A stretch of 28,897 bases of DNA from a virus (lineage: Duplodnaviria; Heunggongvirae; Uroviricota; Caudoviricetes): positions 1 to 28,897 of IMG/VR virus record IMGVR_UViG_2778261084_000005; one strand, given 5' to 3'. The notes beneath the pieces are model-generated. The model saw nothing but the letters and a program-made list of their open reading frames with translations. It was not told where the DNA came from and searched no databases. Positions 2,794 through 22,307 of the stretch are shown in pieces; positions within the stretch are counted from its first letter, which is position 1, and each line of letters opens with the position of its first letter. The position numbers and the translations under genes were made by a program.

Positions 2794-5386
2794 TTGCATA
2801 TTCCTTAGCCCAGCGGGGCAGTGATAACGTCTTAATAGCTGGCCATTCATCGGTATTGAGGCAGTCAGCCAGGGTTCGCAGATTGCGGTGATATTCCAGC
2901 TGACCTGCCAGTTTTGCTTCTTCGCCCATCATGAAAATTTCAACCGGATAACGTCCGCATTCAATAGTTGTGCTGGCAACCAGAAAAACGAAAGTTGGCT
3001 GCACTCCAAACTGTGCTTCATAACCGTCACTGTAGAATGCATCCTGAACGTGATAGCGGTAGTCGTAATAAGCGGTTTTGAATCGTTGAATATCCGCCGT
3101 AGTTTTCACGTCCATGATCCAGTGAAATTCAGGGATAATTTTGTCCGGACGGCACCGACACAAAATTGCTGTTTCAGGATCTTCCCAGTAAATTGATGAT
3201 TCAGCGTGTCCGGCGCTTTCAACAAGCCATTGCCCCAGCGGCAAAGCCATAACGCTCTGATACATGAGTTCAATTTTCCGGCCTTCTTCGGCAGTGATAA
3301 CCGTTTTTCCTGTGCTTGCGCATTCCCTCAGAAACGCTTTCTCTTCTTCTTTTCCGGAGTTTGTCCGGCGGTTAAATTCAGGTGCTACGATAAAGCGGTT
3401 ACTGAATTCTTCCGGCTCAAGTACCCGGCAGTGGAAAGCGGTTCCTAAATCGAGCGTTTTTGTCTTTGTGGTGTCCACGGGGGCATTTTTACGCCACAAA
3501 TACAGTGCCGGAGTATCAGCAATGTCATCGAGCTGAGACTTACTGACACCGGGACCCGCGTGGTAATTCTCATTCGAAATTCCGTAATAAATACCTGGCT
3601 CTATGTCTTCTACGATTACGGGATCTGCGACTTCGCCAGTTTCATCACTGCAATCGCGATGCGGATCGCTGCCAGCATTCTCATTGTGCGGATGTTCAGC
3701 GCCTTCCATTTCCTCCGGATCATTTTCCTTAGCTTCAACCTGACTCTCTTCATCGAATGTTTCCTGGTATGTTGCGTCGCCCATCACCGCACCACAGTCA
3801 GGGCAGTTATCCCCGCCAGTCTGGCCGCAGGCATTGCAGGCTATTTCCGGTTCCTGTTGCACTACTGGCTCAGGTTGATTCATATCCGGGCTGGTTTTTT
3901 CCGTTTCTGGCTGGTTCTGGTACACACAATCGCGAGTCTGGATCCCCTTTACCCATTTCGGATCGTTCGGGTCGCTAATTCCGTCAACAAATTCACCACG
4001 TGATGCAGCAAGCAATTTATCGGCATCGACAGGATTTTTTGATGGAATGTTTTTCCGGGCTTCATGGAGTTCTGCCCGCAGTTCCTGATATTTCGCATCA
4101 ACAGAATTTACCTGTGACTGAGCATCCAGCGGCTGCGTGTCCTGATGATGTTCAGTTGCGTCCGGTTCCATTGTTTCAGCCTCTCCCTGTTCAACTGCCG
4201 TTGTTCCAGATGGTTGCGGTTTTTCTTCATCATCCTGTTTTCCTTCTTCTGTTACTCGCTGCGGCATCGGGGCAGAGGAGCGACCGCAGGCAATATCCAC
4301 GATTTCCGGATCAGGGTTGGCATGATCGGTTTCAGTCAGTACTTTGTTCAGATATTCAGTGACGTGCGCGGGGATGACCTCGATCCCAATTGGTGCTTCT
4401 TTTACGGACGCAACCACGATGGCGCGGGAATAATCCAGCCCGCCAGGCATGGTGATGAATTTGTCGCGGAAAACAGAAAAGGGCGGTTTATTTTCAGCGA
4501 TAATTTCCTCAATGCGTTTAGCGTGTGCCGGATGAAGGTTATAGATGTCCAGATCCATTGAACGGGCCAGTACGCCAGTGGCTACGTCGTGCGCCAGTGA
4601 CGTCAGATCGTGTACGAAACCTTCGCCGCGATCGGTGAGGTTTCCGCCGCCAGCATTAGCACCGGAAGCCGTGCGAGTGATGTGTGAAACACGATTACCC
4701 TTCATCCACTCTTTTGTCAGCAGTCCTCGATCGGTGTAGTCAGCGTTCAGGTATGCTTCGAAAAAAGCAGTTATCAGTCCCAGGTTTGAATTACCAGGAT
4801 TAGGGAAAACTTTGTCAGTGTCACGAACCAGTTTGTGGAGTTCGCGAATTTCCAGCGGGTCGAGCAGGCTGGTTTTGTGGGAAACAGCCAGGGCAGTAAC
4901 AGCCGGTAGTTCTTCAGCCCGAGCAATGTGTAATGCCTGGAGTCCGTCGCGTGAAACGTGCGTTACCGGTTTTTCGCTGCCGTGTTGAGCAAGCCAACGA
5001 ATGGGCAGTTCCTGGCCAGAAATTGGGAGTAGCATATTCTCCTCAATCTCAGTCATGTCTTCGCCGTTGACGTTGGTATTGCCTTGATAGTGAGCGTTGT
5101 CTGGTGCTGCTCCCGGTTTTAGTTCCCATGTCATGGAGTCTTTGCTGAGTTGATAGCGTTCACTCCAGGTAAAATCGATCTCACCTTCAGCGGGCAGGTC
5201 ATTAACGACAGGAAAATTCGTGGCAACAGCTTTAAAATAGCTGCTCAGTTTTTTACCTGACTTAACGATCAGGTAGTCCAGAGTGGCACAGGTCGATTCA
5301 AAATCGTTGCTTGCCCACAGGACGACGTCAGGTTCACCGGATGATTTTTTCGCTTTCCGTAACAGGAAGAGTGGTTTTGTGCTCAT
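2786..5386 (-). CDS. recE: RecE exonuclease VIII (866 aa)
   Basis: 866-aa ORF directly upstream of and overlapping recT by 8 nt; sequence matches recalled RecE. Confidence 0.95.
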
Positions 5387-5837: not shown

Positions 5838-6008
5838 TTAAAGTTCATGTGCCATCTGGTCTTTTTCGGCACAAGCTTCACTGCAATATTTTCTCGGTTC
5901 GTCTTTTGATAAAATCCCGTGCATGAAGTGAAGCATTCTTTCAATAGCTTTGCTTTCTTCAACGTCTTTTTTGCAAAGGTGGTAAGCACATTTTATTTTC
6001 TTAGTCAT
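5838..6008 (-). CDS. ydaE: Small cysteine/histidine-rich protein (56 aa)
   Basis: Own translation: [56 protein letters not shown]. Its ATG overlaps the kilR stop (ATGA). Below the ORF-track length cutoff. Confidence 0.65.
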   Translation of the reverse strand: MTKKIKCAYHLCKKDVEESKAIERMLHFMHGILSKDEPRKYCSEACAEKDQMAHEL

Positions 6009-6229
6009 CACCATGACTCCGCCTTTACAGGTAAACCATCACGACCGAGGAAGACTTTAATCATGCGGTCAGTAATGCATGTTTTTGTGGTCAGGTTACG
6101 AATATATAGTTTTCGCTTTTTAATATTGTTTGCCGAGGCAATATATGTCCGGCCTTCATGAAGAACATAATCGCCAGGAGTCACACACTGACGTGGTATT
6201 TCATCAGTTCCGAAGTGATGTGCAATCAT
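6008..6229 (-). CDS. kilR: KilR cell-division inhibitor (73 aa from [10 protein letters not shown])
   Basis: Translation matches recalled Rac KilR; start at internal Met of the 77-aa track ORF. Confidence 0.85.
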
Positions 6230-6670
6230 AATTATCTCCATTTTTACAAATGAACTTTGTTGATGCGGTGCCTGGTGCCTCCAGGTGACTGCAACCAGTT
6301 AACAATTACAGTCGGCTTTCCCACCCAAACCAATAAGGACTAACATGACTTTTAACTGTGCCACGTGCGCTTAGCCGCATTCACCGCATCACAAAATTCA
6401 CTTTAAAAAGGGCGGACATCAGCCGAACTTCAAGAAAAAAACTGATGCCGCCAGGACTACACACAGCAATGTCGTTATTTACAACCGGAGGCGCACTCCC
6501 ACCATTTAAATTTAACAGACAAGACCGACTCTTTATGGATATCGGAAATGCGCCTTCGTGTTGTGCCCGGTTTTATTTCACCACCTCCGGGCTTCGGTGG
6601 TCTCGGCTATACCCCTACAGCGAGAGCTTGTGTTAACATTTCAATACCCTTACAGTTGAGAGTTATTGAT

Positions 6671-7743: not shown

Positions 7744-8163
7744 TTAAGAGGCTTTTTGTTTTTTCTTTCGTGCTAACTCTTCGTAAATTGCATTGTACTT
7801 CTGTTTTTTCTCCTCAAGAGTTTTTAAAAGTTCATCTGTCTCACTGTCAGGGAGCTCGTCCAGAAGGTCAATGATGATTTTTTGTCTTGGATTTAACTCC
7901 TGATAGAAACGTATCTGTCCACTTTCTTCTGTATCCTCTCCCAAAAGATAGGTTGGTGTTGTTCCAATGAGTGTTGCTAATTCCCTTAATTTCTCTCGGC
8001 GAGGAATTGTTTCACCATTAAACCATTTGCTAACCGCTTTTGGTGTTAATTTCATTCGACGGGCAATTTCTGCCTGCCTTCCATGTTGTTCATAACCAGC
8101 GTTTTCACAGGCTAGCGCAAGCCTACTGGCGAACTCTTTACGCGCTTTATCTTCATGAACCAT
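7744..8163 (-). CDS. racR: Prophage repressor, XRE-type helix-turn-helix (139 aa)
   Basis: HTH-like segment (GRQAEIARRMKLTPKAVSKWFNG); divergently arranged with a cro-like gene, as for cI-type repressors. Confidence 0.8.
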   Translation of the reverse strand: MVHEDKARKEFASRLALACENAGYEQHGRQAEIARRMKLTPKAVSKWFNGETIPRREKLRELATLIGTTPTYLLGEDTEESGQIRFYQELNPRQKIIIDLLDELPDSETDELLKTLEEKKQKYNAIYEELARKKKQKAS

Positions 8164-8242
8164 AAGTTCAATGATATTCGCTCTTGAATGTACTGTCAGT
8201 TCTGTTATAGCATGTACTCAAAGTTCACATTGTGAGGGTGAT

Positions 8243-8497
8243 ATGAACCAGAAAACACTTGAAGATGTAATCAAAACTGTTCGCGTTTCTGTTGTGGCCG
8301 ACGTTTGTGGTGTCAGCCAAAGAGCAATCTACAAATGGATGGATAACGGAAAATTGCCTCGCACAGAATATACCGGCGAAACAAATTACGCTGAAAAAAT
8401 CGCTCATGCATCAAACGGATTATTTTCTGCCGATGCAATTTTAACTATTGGCAGAAATAAAACTACTACGAAAAAGCTGATGGGAGTTGATTCATGA
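8243..8497 (+). CDS. ydaS: Cro/YdaS-like small DNA-binding protein (start ambiguous: 8171 or 8243)
   Basis: ATG at 8243 is preceded by a GAGGG ribosome-binding site and leaves room for a divergent promoter shared with racR. Confidence 0.7.
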   Translation: MNQKTLEDVIKTVRVSVVADVCGVSQRAIYKWMDNGKLPRTEYTGETNYAEKIAHASNGLFSADAILTIGRNKTTTKKLMGVDS

Positions 8498-13500: not shown

Positions 13501-13872
13501 CATAAAAGAAAAAGCTACCGCAAGGCGACTCCACCCACAGATAGCTCTTAATTGATTGTTTGTAAAAAATAATACATTAATTATCTTCTGTGTAAAGAGG
13601 GAAACAGCCTTAGGGTAAGGGACACGAGTTGGGGGGACTGGTGAAATTTGCGTTGAGGATAAAACGATTTGCGGGAAAAGGATAGTTAAGTAGAATTGCT
13701 GCGGGTGCTTGAGGCTGTCTGCCTCGGGCATGAACACCAAAGGCAGATAGAGAAAAGCCCCAGTTAACATTACGCGTCCGGCAAGACGCTTAACATTAAT
13801 CTGAGGCCACATCTATGCTTTGCATACGTAGATTAGCCTCTTACCGACCAAAAGGTCAAGGAGAAGCAGGTT

Positions 13873-14028
13873 ATGAAGCAGCAAAAGGCGATGTTAATCA
13901 CCCTGATCGTCATCTGTTTAACCGTTATAGTGACGGTACTGGTAACGAGGAAAGACCTCTGCGAGGTACGAATCCGAACCGACCAGACGGAGGTCGCTGT
14001 CTTCACAGCTTACGAACTTGGGGAGTAA
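13873..14028 (+). CDS. hok: Hok/Gef-family type I toxin (51 aa)
   Basis: Own translation MKQQKAMLITLIVICLTVIVTVLVTRKDLCEVRIRTDQTEVAVFTAYELGE; AAGGAG site upstream. Overlapping mok-like leader ORF starts at 13815 and now runs into IS186. Confidence 0.85.
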   Translation: MKQQKAMLITLIVICLTVIVTVLVTRKDLCEVRIRTDQTEVAVFTAYELGE

Positions 14029-16440: not shown

Positions 16441-16730
16441 TGGTGAATTTACGTAAAGCGGCTAAAGGCCAGATGTGCCAGATCAGAATCCCTGGCTACT
16501 ACAATCACAATCCCGAAACCTCTGTGCTGGCGCATTACAGGCTGGCGGGGACGTGCGGAACAGCGACAAAACCACATGATATGCAGGCGGCGATAGCCTG
16601 TAGCTCATGCCACGATCTAATCGACGGGCGGGTAAAAACCAGCGATTACACCAAAGAAGAATTGCGCCTGATGCATGCTGAAGGGGTTTTTCGCACACAA
16701 GAAATCTGGAGAAAGAAAGGTCATTTATGA
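16440..16730 (+). CDS. YbcO-like Cys/His-rich small protein, putative nuclease (96 aa)
   Basis: Start overlaps upstream stop (TAATG); motifs CGTATKP and IACSSCHDLIDGR resemble recalled DLP12 YbcO. Confidence 0.55.
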   Translation: MVNLRKAAKGQMCQIRIPGYYNHNPETSVLAHYRLAGTCGTATKPHDMQAAIACSSCHDLIDGRVKTSDYTKEELRLMHAEGVFRTQEIWRKKGHL

Positions 16731-17269
16731 TTTACCCAACGAATACAGGAAAAAGCGGAGAACACCTTCGCCTCACCACGCTGGAAAGTGTCTGGATTCA
16801 GGGAAAACTACGTATGTGGGGGCGCTGGTCGTATATTGGCGGTGGCAGGTCAGGGAATATGTTCAATCAGTTGTTGGCATCCAAAAAACTGACGAAAACA
16901 GCCATTAATGAAGCCCTGCGCAGAATGAAAAAAGCGGGAATAGAGAAAGCTGAGCTGGAAGCGTTTTTGCGAGAGATGATCAACGGCAAGCAAAAGAGCT
17001 GGCTGGCGCATTGTACTGATGCAGAGGCGTTATGTATTGATCGAGTCATAAGTGAGGTGCTGGCAGAGCATCCAGGATTGATTTGCATTCTCCGGCAACG
17101 CTATGAAGGGCGGGGGATGACTAAGCGCAAAATGGCTGAATTGCTAAATGATGCACACCCAGAGTGGTGTTTTAGCACATGCGAAAAACGGATTGCTAAT
17201 TGGTTAGCTGTTGCTGAGTATGCCCTACATATTCCCATGCGTGAATCATTTGCTGAGAAAATGGCTTGA
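16727..17269 (+). CDS. Late-gene antiterminator Q-like protein (180 aa)
   Basis: ATGA overlap with upstream gene; RMWGRW motif and downstream helical segment resemble the Q family; lies upstream of terminators and the lysis cassette. Confidence 0.5.
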   Translation: MIYPTNTGKSGEHLRLTTLESVWIQGKLRMWGRWSYIGGGRSGNMFNQLLASKKLTKTAINEALRRMKKAGIEKAELEAFLREMINGKQKSWLAHCTDAEALCIDRVISEVLAEHPGLICILRQRYEGRGMTKRKMAELLNDAHPEWCFSTCEKRIANWLAVAEYALHIPMRESFAEKMA

Positions 17270-17350
17270 TTTCTTACGTATAAACTGCTTCAATTTTGCT
17301 ATGCTTCGCAAAGCTGTATCGCGAGGCGGATTGCAGACATGGACATCGTA

Positions 17351-17377
17351 AAAAAACCGCTTAATGCGGTTTTTTTA
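17351..17377. terminator. Intrinsic terminator (AAAAAAACCGC-TTAAT-GCGGTTTTTTT)
   Basis: Perfect hairpin flanked by A-tract and T-tract, 82 bp after the Q-like stop. Confidence 0.65.
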
Positions 17378-17695
17378 CGTCAGGAAAGCAGGGGAGAATG
17401 CTGCTAGTTGGGCAACTGGTCTTTCTGCTCCAAATTATAACAGAGACCAGTTATAGTTTCGGTGCTGTGTTTTTTTACAATATTGTGATAACACATTGCT
17501 GGCGGGAGTTTTGATATTTCTTGGCAGGGGCTGATGATGCGTTATCCTGATGTCGTCAACTCATATAAAATGAGATGAGAGATCATTGCAGGGTGGTTTG
17601 TAATTCGCTGTTTAGCGGGACAATATGTTGTCTGATACAAGACACCCGACGCCTCAGATTACTATAATAAAGACGAAGCATCCTTTGTATTGACC

Positions 17696-17721
17696 AACCG
17701 CCTGTTTAGGCGGTTCTTTTT
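17696..17721 (+). terminator. Intrinsic terminator (AACCGCC-TGTTTA-GGCGGTT + CTTTTT), possible tR'-like site
   Basis: Hairpin plus T-run inside an ORF-poor AT-rich stretch downstream of Q. Confidence 0.5.
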
Positions 17722-18252
17722 GGGCTGGTTTATTGTATGCCAAATGATTATTAAAAAGGTTGTGTTAATAACAAAATCCGAAATAATATGCCTGCATATT
17801 TTTATCTTGCTTATATTCTGCATATTGTGCATAGCAGGCTCATCCCTGCAATCAAAACTGTATGATGAGTATTTTTTGTTTTCCTTTTTTCCAGTCATCT
17901 GATGATGACCTGCTTCTTTTTAATCCGGATCGACATCAGTTTTTTAAGATAATTCCTGCGAGTTATATGCATAAATGCCACAAACTCCGCATTTTATGTG
18001 GTTGGGAGTTGCCGGGCGCGCAGTGAGTTTGCTAAGAAAACTCCTGCATGGTGAATCCCCCTGTGCGGTGGGGTGATACCATTAACCTTTTCTGTCGCCG
18101 ACAGGTATCACGAACATTTTGTTCACCGGGAGGCACCCGGCACCATGTACTTCAATAGATTCTCTCCACATTATGGATATTCTTTCAGAATATCCCACGC
18201 AGACTTTGTGTAAATGTTAACAAATGTGCGTTTTATTTGATCTGATTCGCTG

Positions 18253-18282
18253 TTTGAGCGTCCAAAACAACGGTATATATAA
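18253..18282 (+). promoter_or_regulatory. Putative sigma70 promoter TTGAGC-N18-TATAAT upstream of first lipoprotein gene
   Basis: -35 at 18253-18258, -10 at 18277-18282. Confidence 0.3.
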
Positions 18283-18312
18283 TCCTTTACTATATGACAT
18301 ATGTGAGGAAAA

Positions 18313-18741
18313 ATGGGTTTTCGTAGCGCATCAATTCTTACGTTGATTATTAGTGGGATTATTATCGGGTGCACTGATGCTGTATCGACAAATTATCATG
18401 ACCGTACATCATATTACTCCGATAAAGCAATAGAGACACAGTATGTGAGTTCATCTGAACGTACTTCTGATGTTAGTGAGGATATCCGTCTGTATGCCCA
18501 TCAAATCAAGAGCGCCATCGAAAAACAGTTCGGGGATGCGAGTAAGTATTCAGGAAAAGAGTGTACACTGAGAATGCATATGGCCCCGAATGGCCTTCTA
18601 CTGGAGGTTAAAAGAGAAAGTGGAGACCTCGATTTATGTCGTGAAGCGATGAATGCGATAAAGAATGCTGATATACCTGCCCCCCCTTCGCCGGAAGTAT
18701 ATAAAGTATTTCAAAATGGGGTGCTGGATTTTAAACCCTGA
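18313..18741 (+). CDS. Lipoprotein with TolA C-terminal (domain III)-like domain (142 aa)
   Basis: Signal peptide with lipobox IIGC; C-terminal ~85 aa align by eye with recalled TolA C-terminus, including terminal LDFKP. Confidence 0.75.
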   Translation: MGFRSASILTLIISGIIIGCTDAVSTNYHDRTSYYSDKAIETQYVSSSERTSDVSEDIRLYAHQIKSAIEKQFGDASKYSGKECTLRMHMAPNGLLLEVKRESGDLDLCREAMNAIKNADIPAPPSPEVYKVFQNGVLDFKP

Positions 18742-18891
18742 TATTTATTGTTTTGTAATAAACGGTTTCGGCTTAGGTTTGTTCTGACACAGCTACGGCA
18801 CTGAGCTAAATTTAGCGGATAGTCAGCTCTGAGCCAGTGGCGGACGTAACAACTACTATTGCTGAGATTTTAATGGATTGAGGAGCAAGAA

Positions 18892-19287
18892 GTGGGATTA
18901 AAGAAAATCGTTATGTTGACTTTTTGGGTCGGTTTTGTTGCGGGATGCACACCTTTACACCCTTCAGATTGCCACAAAACTACTGCTACAGGTAGTTGCA
19001 GTTCAGGACGCTGGGATGATCAGGATGAATGGGGGGCGCAAGCGCGGGGAATCAGAGCTGCAATTAATGCCAAACTTGATGAGCCGCATAACTGGAAAGG
19101 GAAAAAATGCAGGTTGCATATGGAATTCTCTCAGGATGGCACGGCGTTAAAAATATCTACCAGTAACGGTGATAAAGCCTATTGCGAAGCGATAAAGTCC
19201 GCAGCTCATAAAGCCAAATTTCCGGCCTTCAACAATCCGGAAGTCTACAGAGATTTTCAGAAATCTGGCTTTGACATGCGAGGTTAG
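18892..19287 (+). CDS. Paralogous lipoprotein with diverged TolA domain III-like C-terminus (131 aa, GTG start)
   Basis: GAGGAG site then GTG; lipobox VAGC; shares KGKxCxLxM...GDxxxCxxA...PxxxxPEVYxxFQ pattern with the first lipoprotein. Confidence 0.65.
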   Translation: MGLKKIVMLTFWVGFVAGCTPLHPSDCHKTTATGSCSSGRWDDQDEWGAQARGIRAAINAKLDEPHNWKGKKCRLHMEFSQDGTALKISTSNGDKAYCEAIKSAAHKAKFPAFNNPEVYRDFQKSGFDMRG

Positions 19288-19538
19288 CTCTTCAATTACT
19301 ATATCTCATTCATAGCAAACTGACAGATTTGATGATGTTCTATATACGAAACCTGTGATGTCAAGTCTGAGCTAATACAAATAAACATAATATCAGAGAA
19401 ATACATTTTATTAGCTCGCTACGGCGAGCTTTTTATATTGCATCGTCTCCAGCATATATATCAATTAAGGCTCTGATTGATGTGTCTGAAAGCCTACACA
19501 TAATAACTATGCCATCCGTTCCGTGCGGAGGTGAGGCT

Positions 19539-19754
19539 ATGAAATCCATGGACAAAATTTCAACAGGCATTGCCTACGGCACCTCCGCAGGCAGTGCTGG
19601 CTACTGGTTTTTACAGTTGCTCGATAGAGTAACTCCGTCACAGTGGGCTGCAATCGGTGTGCTGGGTAGTCTGGTATTTGGCCTGCTGACGTACCTGACA
19701 AACCTTTATTTCAAGATTAAAGAAGATAAGCGCAAGACTGCGAGAGGTGAATAA
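19539..19754 (+). CDS. Phage-21-type class II holin/antiholin (pinholin) with dual-start motif (71 aa)
   Basis: [10 protein letters not shown]... with Met1 and Met4 starts; matches recalled S21. Confidence 0.85.
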
Positions 19755-20251
19755 TGCCTCCATCATTACGAAAAGTCGTTGCTGCTGCTATTGGTGGCGG
19801 AGCAATTGCTATAGCATCAGTGCTAATCACTGGCCCAAGTGGTAACGATGGTCTGGAAGGTGTCAGCTACATACCATACAAAGATATTGTTGGTGTATGG
19901 ACTGTATGTCACGGGCATACAGGAAAAGACATCATGCTCGGTAAAACGTATACCAAAGCAGAATGCAAAGCCCTCCTGAATAAAGACCTTGCCACGGTCG
20001 CCAGACAAATTAACCCGTACATCAAAGTCGATATACCGGAAACAATGCGCGGCGCTCTTTACTCATTCGTTTACAACGTGGGTGCTGGCAATTTCAGAAC
20101 ATCGACGCTTCTTCGCAAAATAAACCAGGGCGATATCAAAGGCGCATGTGATCAGCTACGTCGCTGGACATATGCTGGCGGTAAGCAATGGAAAGGTCTC
20201 ATGACTCGTCGTGAGATTGAGCGTGAAATCTGTTTGTGGGGTCAGCAATGA
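19754..20251 (+). CDS. SAR endolysin, lysozyme family (165 aa)
   Basis: Gly/Ala-rich weakly hydrophobic N-terminal segment ([18 protein letters not shown]) followed by lysozyme-like domain; start overlaps holin stop. Confidence 0.85.
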
Positions 20252-20712
20252 ACAGAGTAACCGCGATTATCTCCGCTCTGGTTATCTGCATCATCGTCTG
20301 CCTGTCATGGGCTGTTAATCATTACCGTGATAACGCCATTACCTACAAAGCCCAGCGCGACAAAAATGCCAGAGAACTGAAGCTGGCGAACGCGGCAATT
20401 ACTGACATGCAGATGCGTCAGCGTGATGTTGCTGCGCTCGATGCAAAATACACGAAGGAGTTAGCTGATGCGAAAGCTGAAAATGATGCTCTGCGTGATG
20501 ATGTTGCCGCTGGTCGTCGTCGGTTGCACATCAAAGCAGTCTGTCAGTCAGTGCGTGAAGCCACCACCGCCTCCGGCGTGGATAATGCAGCCTCCCCCCG
20601 ACTGGCAGACACCGCTGAACGGGATTATTTCACCCTCCGGGAACGACTGGTAATGATGCAGGCCCAACTTGAAGGTGCTCAGCAATACATAACCGAGCAG
20701 TGTTTAAAGTAA
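20248..20712 (+). CDS. Rz-like inner-membrane spanin (154 aa)
   Basis: N-terminal TM helix plus coiled-coil-like periplasmic region; ATGA overlap with endolysin. Confidence 0.8.
20468..20653 (+). CDS. Rz1-like outer-membrane lipoprotein spanin (61 aa), embedded in Rz in +1 frame
   Basis: Signal peptide with lipobox VVGC and proline-rich mature part. Confidence 0.8.
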
Positions 20713-20849
20713 AATCTTAACTACAATATGATTCATTTTGATGATTGTTTCATAAGGAACAGTGAAGTAAGATCTAAGAGGAGTTAAATTTTATACAGTA
20801 TAATCATAATATTGCAGCAAGGTGGTTATAATTGAAAGAATATTTAGAT

Positions 20850-22307
20850 ATGAATACATCTCATGTAAGAGTTGTTACTCATATGTGTGGGTTCTTGGTT
20901 TGGCTCTATAGTCTTTCAATGTTGCCACCAATGGTTGTAGCATTGTTTTATAAAGAAAAAAGCCTGTTCGTTTTCTTTATAACTTTCGTTATATTTTTTT
21001 GCATTGGTGGCGGAGCGTGGTATACAACTAAGAAATCTGGCATTCAATTACGTACCCGTGATGGGTTTATTATAATTGTAATGTTTTGGATTTTGTTTTC
21101 TGTTATTAGTGCATTCCCTTTATGGATTGACTCAGAACTTAATTTAACGTTCATTGACGCTCTGTTTGAAGGGGTTTCTGGAATAACAACAACAGGAGCA
21201 ACTGTAATTGATGATGTTAGTTCATTACCTCGGGCATATTTGTACTATCGGTCACAGTTAAATTTTATAGGTGGTTTAGGAGTTATTGTTCTGGCGGTTG
21301 CAGTATTGCCATTATTGGGTATTGGTGGTGCAAAGCTTTATCAGTCAGAAATGCCGGGGCCATTTAAGGATGACAAACTCACTCCCCGCCTGGCCGATAC
21401 GTCACGGACACTGTGGATAACTTATTCTTTATTAGGTATTGCTTGTATTGTCTGTTATAGACTTGCAGGAATGCCTTTGTTTGATGCTATTTGTCACGGG
21501 ATTTCCACAGTTTCGCTTGGTGGTTTCTCAACTCATAGCGAGAGTATCGGATATTTTAATAACTATTTGGTTGAGCTGGTGGCTGGTTCTTTTTCCCTGC
21601 TATCGGCTTTCAACTTCACTCTTTGGTATATTGTTATTAGCAGAAAAACGATAAAACCTTTAATCAGAGATATTGAACTTCGTTTCTTTCTGTTAATAGC
21701 CTTAGGGGTGATCATTGTTACCTCTTTCCAGGTCTGGCATATAGGTATGTATGACTTGCATGGAAGTTTTATTCATTCGTTTTTTCTTGCCAGCTCCATG
21801 CTCACTGATAATGGTTTAGCTACGCAGGATTATGCAAACTGGCCCACGCACACGATAGTGTTTTTGCTGTTGTCAAGTTTCTTTGGGGGATGTATAGGTT
21901 CAACCTGTGGTGGAATTAAGTCACTTCGATTTCTTATACTTTTCAAACAAAGCAAACACGAGATAAATCAGCTTTCTCATCCCAGAGCGTTGTTGAGTGT
22001 AAATGTAGGAGGGAAGATAGTTACAGATCGTGTAATGAGGTCTGTATGGAGTTTCTTTTTTCTTTATACTCTCTTCACGGTGTTTTTTATACTGGTGTTA
22101 AATGGTATGGGATATGATTTTCTTACATCATTTGCAACAGTGGCTGCATGTATTAATAATATGGGATTAGGTTTTGGGGCTACTGCATCGTCATTCGGAG
22201 TGCTTAATGACATTGCAAAGTATTTAATGTGCATAGCTATGATTCTTGGTCGCCTTGAAATTTATCCTGTTATTATATTGTTTTCAGGTTTTTTTTGGCG
22301 CTCCTAA
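20850..22307 (+). CDS. trkG: Trk-system potassium uptake protein (485 aa from MNTSHVRVV)
   Basis: Polytopic membrane protein matching recalled TrkG; AT-rich cargo gene after the lysis cassette. Confidence 0.9.
   Translation: MNTSHVRVVTHMCGFLVWLYSLSMLPPMVVALFYKEKSLFVFFITFVIFFCIGGGAWYTTKKSGIQLRTRDGFIIIVMFWILFSVISAFPLWIDSELNLTFIDALFEGVSGITTTGATVIDDVSSLPRAYLYYRSQLNFIGGLGVIVLAVAVLPLLGIGGAKLYQSEMPGPFKDDKLTPRLADTSRTLWITYSLLGIACIVCYRLAGMPLFDAICHGISTVSLGGFSTHSESIGYFNNYLVELVAGSFSLLSAFNFTLWYIVISRKTIKPLIRDIELRFFLLIALGVIIVTSFQVWHIGMYDLHGSFIHSFFLASSMLTDNGLATQDYANWPTHTIVFLLLSSFFGGCIGSTCGGIKSLRFLILFKQSKHEINQLSHPRALLSVNVGGKIVTDRVMRSVWSFFFLYTLFTVFFILVLNGMGYDFLTSFATVAACINNMGLGFGATASSFGVLNDIAKYLMCIAMILGRLEIYPVIILFSGFFWRS

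Follow-up and report, generated by a model that had tools for sequence, protein, structure and literature searches.

Why should a prophage carry, between its antiterminator gene and its lysis genes, two small lipoproteins that end in what looks like a piece of the host protein TolA? The question is raised by positions 1 to 28,897 of the IMG/VR virus record IMGVR_UViG_2778261084_000005, a stretch of 28,897 nucleotides (nt) that is called the window here, in which a preliminary description had noted two lipoprotein genes with IIGC and VAGC lipoboxes. Both genes, ORF1 and ORF2, were confirmed, together with their signal peptides and lipoboxes, at 18313-18741 and 18892-19287. To judge from alignments and structural models, their products are copies of the tip of TolA (domain III, or TolAIII) with a predicted lipid anchor, and not TolA. 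As to what such copies might do, the answer that we favour, and hold tentatively, is that they are outer-membrane-anchored decoys against Tol-dependent colicins and filamentous phages.

Two lipoprotein genes under purifying selection

18313..18741, + strand: ORF1, a 142-amino-acid lipoprotein, with an ATG start and GAGGA 5 nt upstream
Parts of ORF1: signal peptide and lipobox, residues 1-20 (Cys20 at 18370-18372); disordered linker, residues 21-53; TolA domain III, residues 54-142 (18472-18738)
18892..19287, + strand: ORF2, a 131-amino-acid lipoprotein, with a GTG start and GAGGAG 6 nt upstream
Parts of ORF2: signal peptide and lipobox, residues 1-19 (Cys19 at 18946-18948); Cys-rich acidic linker CTPLHPSDCHKTTATGSCSSGRWDDQDEWG, residues 19-48
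Domain of ORF2: diverged TolA domain III, with helix 1 from residue 46 (19027) and the end at residue 131 (19284)

Both N-termini have the charged n-region, the hydrophobic h-region and the lipobox near residues 15-25 (pattern [LVI][ASTVI][GAS]C) by which lipoprotein signals are recognized. That of ORF1 reads MGFRSASILTLIISGIIIGC and continues with TD, with R4 in the n-region and IIGC ending at residue 20; that of ORF2 reads MGLKKIVMLTFWVGFVAGC and continues with TP, with K4-K5 in the n-region and VAGC ending at residue 19. The lipobox is kept across all aligned homologues of the two proteins. In E. coli, Asp at position +2 after the lipidated Cys is the signal for inner-membrane retention under the Lol sorting rule. 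The +2 residue is Thr in both ORF1 and ORF2, so that sorting to the outer membrane by Lol is most likely for both. RefSeq begins ORF2 at an internal ATG, 18913 (reference locus L001, 19714-20088); that start would lose the Lys-Lys n-region, and the GTG start is preferred for this reason.

ORF1 and ORF2 are real genes under purifying selection. Measured against diverged alleles, ORF1 has a ratio of nonsynonymous to synonymous substitution rates (dN/dS) of 0.28-0.40, and alleles that differ at 33-35% of residues retain the frame, the lipobox and the domain with its fold. The ORF2 family is held much tighter, with dN/dS of 0.06-0.11, and its linker is near-invariant in E. coli, Citrobacter, Enterobacter, Klebsiella and Serratia (consensus CxPLHPSxCHKTTATGSCSSGRWDDQDEWG), with dN of 0.035-0.044 and dS saturated. 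In ORF2 the linker (18946-19035) has a W-x5-W motif of acidic character, and a further pair of cysteines; no Pfam family matches it, and the degree of conservation exceeds by far the needs of a tether. The W-x5-W motif in GSCSSGRWDDQDEWG recalls the TolB box of ColE9 (32-GASDGSGWSSENNPW-46), and the linker was considered as a colicin-type TolB box on that account; the candidate was rejected, the core DG(S/T)GW being absent and the Trp spacing different.

Resemblance to the tip of TolA

The preliminary description had likened the C-terminus of ORF1 to TolA's C-terminal domain, down to the terminal LDFKP, and this likeness holds. Against Pfam PF06519, the TolA C-terminal domain (model length 96, gathering threshold 25 bits), ORF1 scores 82.6 bits (E 2e-23, model positions 4-96); it is 60.5% identical to E. 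coli TolA over residues 336-421, and its terminal LDFKP is the same as that of TolA. ORF2 scores 54.6 bits (E 1e-14, model positions 10-92) and is 33.8% identical to TolA over the same residues. Both disulfide cysteines (C363-C388) are aligned in each protein. With phmmer, the TolA chains of the PDB were matched at E 5e-28 by ORF1 and at E 5e-9 by ORF2, and for both ORFs the PDB matches at E <= 0.01 were to TolA-containing entries only. The AlphaFold2 (AF2) models agree, with a predicted local distance difference test (pLDDT) score above 90 over the domain in both proteins and disordered linkers. Superposed on TolAIII structures, the ORF1 model fits 2x9a_B with a root-mean-square deviation (rmsd) of 0.6 A over 88 columns (template-modelling score, TM, 0.96), and the ORF2 model fits 3qdp with an rmsd of 1.1 A over 86 columns (TM 0.92); the top Foldseek matches for both models are all TolAIII. 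Both proteins also belong with PHROG 5772, whose function is listed as unknown (E 1.6e-62 for ORF1 and 6.7e-65 for ORF2, covering profile positions 1-128 or 2-128 of 128).

The remainder of TolA is missing. Neither protein has the transmembrane helix of domain I or the long helical domain II, and each begins instead with a cleavable signal peptide of the lipoprotein type, after which come 25-33 disordered residues. In the full-length TolA models, the alignments reach only the last ~95 positions (293-386 of 387 in NF007065, 265-362 of 362 in TIGR02794), and the NF007065 scores, 107.8 for ORF1 and 53.7 for ORF2, fall below the cut-off of 213. ORF1 does pass the TIGR02794 cut-off (75.6 against 59.45), and does so through domain III alone. 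Herein lies the source of a confusing annotation: RefSeq/PGAP gives ORF1 as a tolA pseudogene, “incomplete; missing N-terminus” (reference locus L001, 19282-19542), because PGAP matched a full-length TolA model that domain III can pass by itself. This label is wrong, and so is the name “cell envelope integrity protein TolA” borne by many relatives that have no domains I and II. The similarity to TolA as such is already visible in these RefSeq names and is not new. Since domains I and II are absent, no coupling to TolQR is expected.

Ligand sites compared with those of TolA

Two faces of TolAIII have to be distinguished. The g3p N1 domain of filamentous phages pairs with the backbone of the beta3 strand, as does ColN by the evidence of mutagenesis, and TolB uses the same site (PMC4339652, PMC7391070), whereas colicin A contacts residues 375-380 plus K368, K379 and K396, on the side of the domain opposite beta3 (PMC3365938). 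In ORF1, the beta3 strand L417-D418-F419-K420-P421 is identical to that of TolA, and in the colicin A box L375, L376, K379 and K396 are kept, D377E, I378V and L392M are conservative, and K368H and P380R are not. In ORF2, the colicin A box is lost (K368E, D377K, K379S, K396H) and beta3 reads FDMRG. With these other surfaces and an extra conserved linker, ORF2 probably has another ligand range.

A Tyr residue of TolAIII has been linked genetically to TolB binding (cited as Tyr-352 in PMC2707214; Y353 in the 421-residue numbering). ORF1 has Gly at the equivalent position and ORF2 has Asp; the Tyr is kept in 23% of short lipoprotein cluster representatives versus 69% of long TolA-type representatives. 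The published affinities also differ by ligand: TolAIII binds the ColA T-domain at 1.3 uM (PMC3365938) and ColN at ~1-3 uM (PMC4339652), and for TolB the values are 40-200 uM (PMC7391070) or, by surface plasmon resonance, 4 uM (PMC2707214).

Two cargo genes with separate histories

The preliminary description had called ORF2 a diverged paralogue of ORF1, and this is true only in the broad sense. The two proteins are homologous (29% identity, E 2e-18), which is the part that stands; ORF2 has lost the colicin A box and has its own conserved linker, and it belongs to a separate subfamily. An origin as a local tandem duplicate of ORF1 was rejected, as ORF2 is 29% identical to ORF1 against 84-88% to genes on plasmids and in other genera. 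Its homology with IncI1 plasmids and pO157 is confined to 18862-19290, at 87-88% nucleotide identity. ORF1 and ORF2 were acquired independently of each other, as cargo of a lambdoid (Rac-like) prophage.

Among 5426 complete E. coli genomes, 776 (about one in seven) have the pair, with flanks of the window type in only 431 of the 776. In INPHARED, a tblastn search matched a single record, mEp460_ev081, a phage that shares the block 18025-19755 with the window and has a different Q and a different lysis cassette. Wider sampling came from 80 IMG/VR loci, 58 of them with an ORF1-type gene. In every one of these 58 viral loci the gene stands in the slot between Q and the lysis genes, with at least four types of Q upstream and at least three lysis cassettes downstream, and the next gene is either ORF2 or that for the nanS-p esterase. 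The cassette is thus met as a moron-like unit, exchangeable between lambdoid backbones. In some prophages (loci L015 and L016, 4947-5375), ORF1-type alleles of 65-67% protein identity lie between tRNA-Ile/tRNA-Arg and nanS-p, downstream of Q and a DNA methyltransferase gene. This is the position at which Stx phages carry stxAB.

A wider family of short TolAIII proteins

ORF2-type genes are found well beyond the prophage slot. On the IncI1-type plasmid NZ_CP095273.1, one of 88% protein identity (3444-3875) comes immediately after the relaxase gene nikB, and on the pO157-type plasmid NZ_CP038406.1 another (7995-8426) lies beside a nikB remnant; ~550 places on E. coli plasmids match the ORF2-type plasmid gene. 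In Enterobacter, Serratia and Citrobacter, ORF2-type genes stand alone at unrelated chromosomal spots, and their solitary state in three genera implies that no dedicated partner is needed. The Serratia marcescens gene (loci L011 and L012, 6001-8736) lies in the interval from nrdDG to an arsenic/phosphonate region, where it adjoins genes for GmrSD_N-domain and HEPN-domain proteins that may form a defence pair. A group of 21 viral contigs has an ORF2-type gene of 83% identity at a prophage end (locus L058, 2598-6125); it comes after a fragment of a resolvase gene and genes like umuD and umuC, and is followed by chromosomal genes for SRAP, glutathione peroxidase and an ABC-transporter ATPase.

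A family profile search of 1.8 billion cluster representatives (clusters of 50% identity) gave 573 relatives, the best 150 of which were inspected. Among these 150 there are 76 complete short proteins of 100-175 residues, at least 55 of the 76 have a lipobox, and Asp is found at +2 in none of the 55 lipobox-bearing representatives. The short family retains the disulfide, G360, G383-D384, P401 and the beta3 motif L-D-F-K.

Klebsiella provides two arrangements in which the short TolAIII protein has company. The 10-kb ColRNAI plasmid NZ_CP031718.1 of Klebsiella pneumoniae has the gene of a colicin-like tRNase bacteriocin, accompanied by those for immunity and lysis. At 5905-6638 (also locus L017) it has an overlapping two-gene unit, for a TolAIII lipoprotein with the lipobox LTAC and, by translational coupling, for a 121-residue TonB_C protein with an ordinary signal peptide. 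These TolA-C and TonB-C genes are copies of both of the hubs through which bacteriocins are imported. In previous work, TolA-C/TonB-C-type genes were merely noted as present on a cloacin-type plasmid (PMC10269471). On the Klebsiella IncR plasmid NZ_CP141857.1 (5217-6246), the gene directly upstream of that for a TolAIII lipoprotein (lipobox ITAC) encodes a secreted protein with a thioredoxin fold, which is possibly a dedicated oxidoreductase for the TolAIII disulfide.

A possible decoy, and the other readings

If ORF1 and ORF2 are decoys, matters would proceed as follows. Each protein would be lipidated on its lipobox Cys and carried by the Lol system to the outer membrane, in whose inner leaflet it would be anchored; from there the flexible linker of ~25-33 residues would hold the folded TolAIII copy in the periplasm. 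To enter the cell, colicins of group A (A, N, K, E1) and filamentous phages, the latter by the N1 domain of g3p, must capture TolAIII. Having neither a transmembrane anchor nor a link to the TolQR motor, a copy tethered to the outer membrane could bind these invaders at their first emergence into the periplasm and hold them in a dead-end complex, so that the lysogen, or the host of the plasmid, would become tolerant to colicins and filamentous phages. Since the invaders bind at ~1-3 uM and TolB at 4-200 uM, a modest amount of decoy could intercept them with no tol phenotype. ORF1, with beta3 intact and the colicin A box largely kept, is a close mimic of host TolAIII.

IncI1 pili serve as receptors for the filamentous phage IF1. 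The g3p of IF1 is bound to TolAIII in PDB 2x9a, and it is through these two facts that the presence of ORF2-type genes on IncI1 plasmids is connected with defence. This presence, and that of TolA-C and TonB-C genes on a bacteriocin plasmid, fits a defensive role. Taken together, the comparative evidence (the ligand sites kept in ORF1, the pairing with TonB-C, the IncI1 plasmids and the absence of Asp at +2) makes the role of decoy more plausible. Sequestration has an experimental precedent in the mirror direction: when periplasmic g3p N1 sequesters TolA, the cells resist colicin A and their uptake of phage falls by 4 logs (PMC10424213). It is possible, and to our minds still rather doubtful, that the mobile elements of Enterobacteriaceae carry a large unrecognised family of import-hub decoys tethered to the outer membrane. 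Such a family would consist of TolAIII, sometimes with a secreted TonB C-terminal domain, and would amount to partner-free immunity that spares the Tol-Pal and Ton systems of the host, with ORF1 and ORF2 covering different sets of ligands.

A number of points weigh against all this. A search of the literature found no functional study of any family member, and PADLOC has no model that matches ORF1 or ORF2. Moreover, the two genes lie in a late operon, and a promoter of their own is indicated by a consensus match only; if the decoy were made only upon induction, the cell that it protected would be one on the point of lysis. ORF2, with no colicin A box and with FDMRG as beta3, is not a simple copy of the ligand range of E. 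coli TolA, and its near-invariant linker points to some further or other binding activity, one for which a plain decoy has no use. Finally, the intact beta3 of ORF1 means that TolB could be bound, which favours another explanation, namely that the two proteins are modulators of Tol-Pal that help the phage to leave. On this explanation TolAIII, made late and in bulk, binds the N-terminus of TolB or another partner of TolA, uncouples Tol-Pal and loosens the outer membrane, with more vesicles, and so aids the spanins or the release of virions or cargo. Periplasmic overproduction of TolAIII reportedly leads to tol phenotypes or tolerance and to vesicles. It is also in keeping with such a function that every ORF1-type locus is immediately upstream of holin, endolysin and spanin genes, with some at the stx position, and that the strand used by TolB is unaltered in ORF1. 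A “TolA” gene of prophage CP-933O, which may or may not be homologous to ORF1, is reported to be induced 32-fold by ciprofloxacin (PMC11125564). The difficulty is that ORF2-type genes on plasmids and chromosomes are far from any lysis genes and yet under strong purifying selection, which implies that their constant presence is tolerated; furthermore, the Tyr linked to TolB binding is replaced in both proteins, by Gly in ORF1 and by Asp in ORF2, and the short family as a whole keeps it poorly, and the affinity of TolAIII for TolB is weak. We consider modulation of Tol-Pal unlikely; it could coexist with a role as decoy at a different level of expression.

The outer-membrane lipoprotein architecture would suit yet another function, in which a fold of the TolA/TonB type clamps an exposed strand of an outer-membrane protein (the plug of a TonB-dependent transporter, a porin or TolC) from the inner face and closes it to phages and bacteriocins. 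Prophage cargo of the Cor/Llp type, which blocks receptors, is a known class. TolAIII is structurally near the TonB C-terminal domain, which takes Ton boxes by strand augmentation (PMC7391070), and for ORF2, with surfaces unlike those of TolA and a constrained linker, the idea is at its most attractive. ORF1, however, is too faithful to the surfaces of host TolAIII for a new target, neither protein resembles Cor or Llp in sequence (the matches in Pfam and PHROGs are to TolA and the family of unknown function only), and no candidate target was identified; receptor blocking is, on balance, quite improbable. The same genomic niche is occupied by stx, bor and other lysogenic-conversion genes, and an ORF2-type gene is present on the virulence plasmid pO157, so that one might think of lipoproteins for host interaction or virulence, surface-exposed or borne on vesicles like Bor and Lom, in which the TolA-like fold is reused. 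This we hold to be very unlikely: the family occurs widely, both among Enterobacteriaceae of environmental and commensal origin and on plasmids for bacteriocins, there is no sign of surface exposure, and the conserved features, disulfide included, are those of the periplasmic TolA domain. There remains the notion that the genes are non-functional remnants and ORF1 a fragment of a tolA pseudogene, as the PGAP label has it. ORF1, however, is complete, with a Shine-Dalgarno sequence, signal peptide and lipobox, and the pair is found in 776 of the 5426 genomes. As far as sequence analysis goes, the intact signal peptide, the frame conserved in diverged alleles that also keep the lipobox and fold, and a dN/dS below 0.4 (0.28-0.40) rule the pseudogene out, and the notion hardly deserves credence.

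Relation to known systems

With TolA domain III (PDB 1TOL, 2X9A, 3QDP, 3QDR, 1S62), ORF1 and ORF2 have in common the fold, the homology and the disulfide, and ORF1 also the LDFKP. They differ in that a lipoprotein signal replaces domains I and II, which predicts anchoring from the opposite (outer) membrane, and in that they are encoded by mobile elements and not by the tol-pal operon. Llp of T5 and Cor of the phi80, N15 and HK022 group are phage lipoproteins at the inner face of the outer membrane that inactivate FhuA and exclude superinfection. ORF1 and ORF2 resemble them as small phage-encoded lipoproteins, also expected at that inner face, for which a block at the level of the envelope is proposed. 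The sequences are unrelated, and where Llp and Cor inactivate a receptor, FhuA, mimicry of a periplasmic hub is proposed here. Exclusion by pIII involves the same interaction pair, g3p N1 and TolA, one partner being titrated and TolA thereby closed to colicins and to later invaders (PMC10424213). There, a phage ligand masks host TolA and tol phenotypes result; ORF1 and ORF2 would mask the ligand and leave host TolA free. Lambdoid morons such as stxAB, bor and nanS-p offer the parallel of the slot between Q and the lysis genes; around ORF1 and ORF2, consensus scans give a terminator-like hairpin closing the unit and a promoter-like site ahead of it. The difference is that these morons provide a toxin or serum resistance where envelope defence is presumed for ORF1 and ORF2. 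The short TolA-C proteins of the Klebsiella ColRNAI and IncR plasmids likewise combine a lipobox with TolAIII, are 45-49% identical to E. coli TolAIII and keep the motif LDFR; they belong to another subfamily, are paired with a secreted TonB-C or thioredoxin-fold protein and have not kept the colicin A box.

Entry of colicins and filamentous phages by way of TolA is textbook knowledge, and natural resistance is normally ascribed to loss of the receptor, to tol mutations or to specific immunity proteins. If ORF1 and ORF2 are indeed decoys, the horizontal transfer of a hub mimic would open a new route to tolerance of a class of bacteriocins and of pilus-dependent phages, free of the envelope cost of a tol mutation, and there would be an ecological reason for this occupant of a slot that holds stx in Stx phages. 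The presence of the family on IncI1 resistance plasmids, on pO157 and on Klebsiella bacteriocin plasmids could also affect colicin and phage therapeutics, the hosts used for phage display and competition in the gut.

The prophage around the cassette

The window is a Rac-like E. coli prophage, with an integrase at the left end, RalR/RalA, recET, kilR, sieB and hok/sok, then the late region and trkG. Around ORF1 and ORF2 the following features were placed:

16727..17269, + strand: Q-like late-gene antiterminator candidate (Pfam DUF1133, 2.7e-106; Phage_antitermQ borderline, 26.4 bits against a cut-off of 26)
18016..18202, + strand: STnc100-family element resembling a prophage small RNA (sRNA) (Rfam RF02076, 83.4 bits against a gathering score of 47)
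18254..18283, + strand: sigma-70 promoter-like site (TTGAGC, 18-nt spacer, TATAAT; 10/12 consensus matches), 30 nt 5′ of the ORF1 start
19413..19437, + strand: intrinsic-terminator-like hairpin from a terminator scan (AGCTCGC-TACG-GCGAGCT at 19413-19430, then TTTTTAT)
19539..20712, + strand: lysis cassette with P21-type holin, lysozyme, and Rz with embedded Rz1 (Pfam Phage_holin_2_1, Phage_lysozyme, Phage_lysis, Rz1)

The cassette had been described as lying between a Q-like gene and a holin gene, and this is borne out. Upstream is the DUF1133/Phage_antitermQ gene, itself preceded by DUF1367 and YbcO genes, and this gene fills the Q position across all related viral loci; downstream are the P21-type holin, lysozyme, Rz and Rz1, among which RefSeq uses the names essD and rrrD. 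The further description of the pair as late-expressed cargo is right as to the cargo slot. Late expression is only inferred, since a sigma-70-like site lies directly 5′ of ORF1 and a terminator stands 3′ of ORF2. PR' and tR' could not be placed with confidence in the 1-kb gap at 17270-18312, where there are consensus matches only. Terminator-like hairpins are present between the Q-like gene and ORF1 by consensus scans, and the hairpin at 19413-19437 closes the two-gene unit just ahead of the holin gene. The promoter-like site at 18254-18283 is a possible promoter of the cassette's own; the preliminary description had begun at 18253, 60 nt 5′ of ORF1, and so covered it. From this arrangement of signals, ORF1 and ORF2 look like one unit that may be read from a Q-controlled late promoter or from its own. 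A symmetric hairpin at 17350-17376 (AAAAAAACCGC-TTAAT-GCGGTTTTTTT), 80 nt past the Q-like gene and flanked by runs of A and T, was missed by the consensus scan and has the look of a bidirectional terminator.

The STnc100-like element lies directly 5′ of ORF1 and forms the left edge of the cassette held in common with mEp460_ev081, in which the homology with the window begins at 18025 and an STnc100 element likewise stands ahead of the ORF pair. STnc100 is regarded as a prophage sRNA related to PasD (2026 preprint), and the element here may be a separate sRNA or a piece of the ORF1 leader. It was also considered as a cold-shock 5′ leader of the ydfK/cspG type, and this was rejected: there is no STnc100 match near ydfK of locus L001, and the cspG leader of locus L002 matches the cspA thermoregulator instead. 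Locus L016 has several partial STnc100 copies (the first ~120 nt) in the neighbourhood of its ORF1-type gene and its nanS-p esterase gene.

Directly after Rz/Rz1 comes the potassium transporter gene trkG (20832-22307, + strand), with a GC content of 0.32-0.42 against ~0.48 in the lysis genes; it is a second late-region cargo gene of this prophage, as in the Rac prophage of K-12. Elsewhere in the same prophage, Rfam places the RalA antitoxin sRNA of the type I RalR/RalA system at 1557-1735 and a sok antitoxin RNA of the hok/sok type, beside hokD, at 13703-13878.

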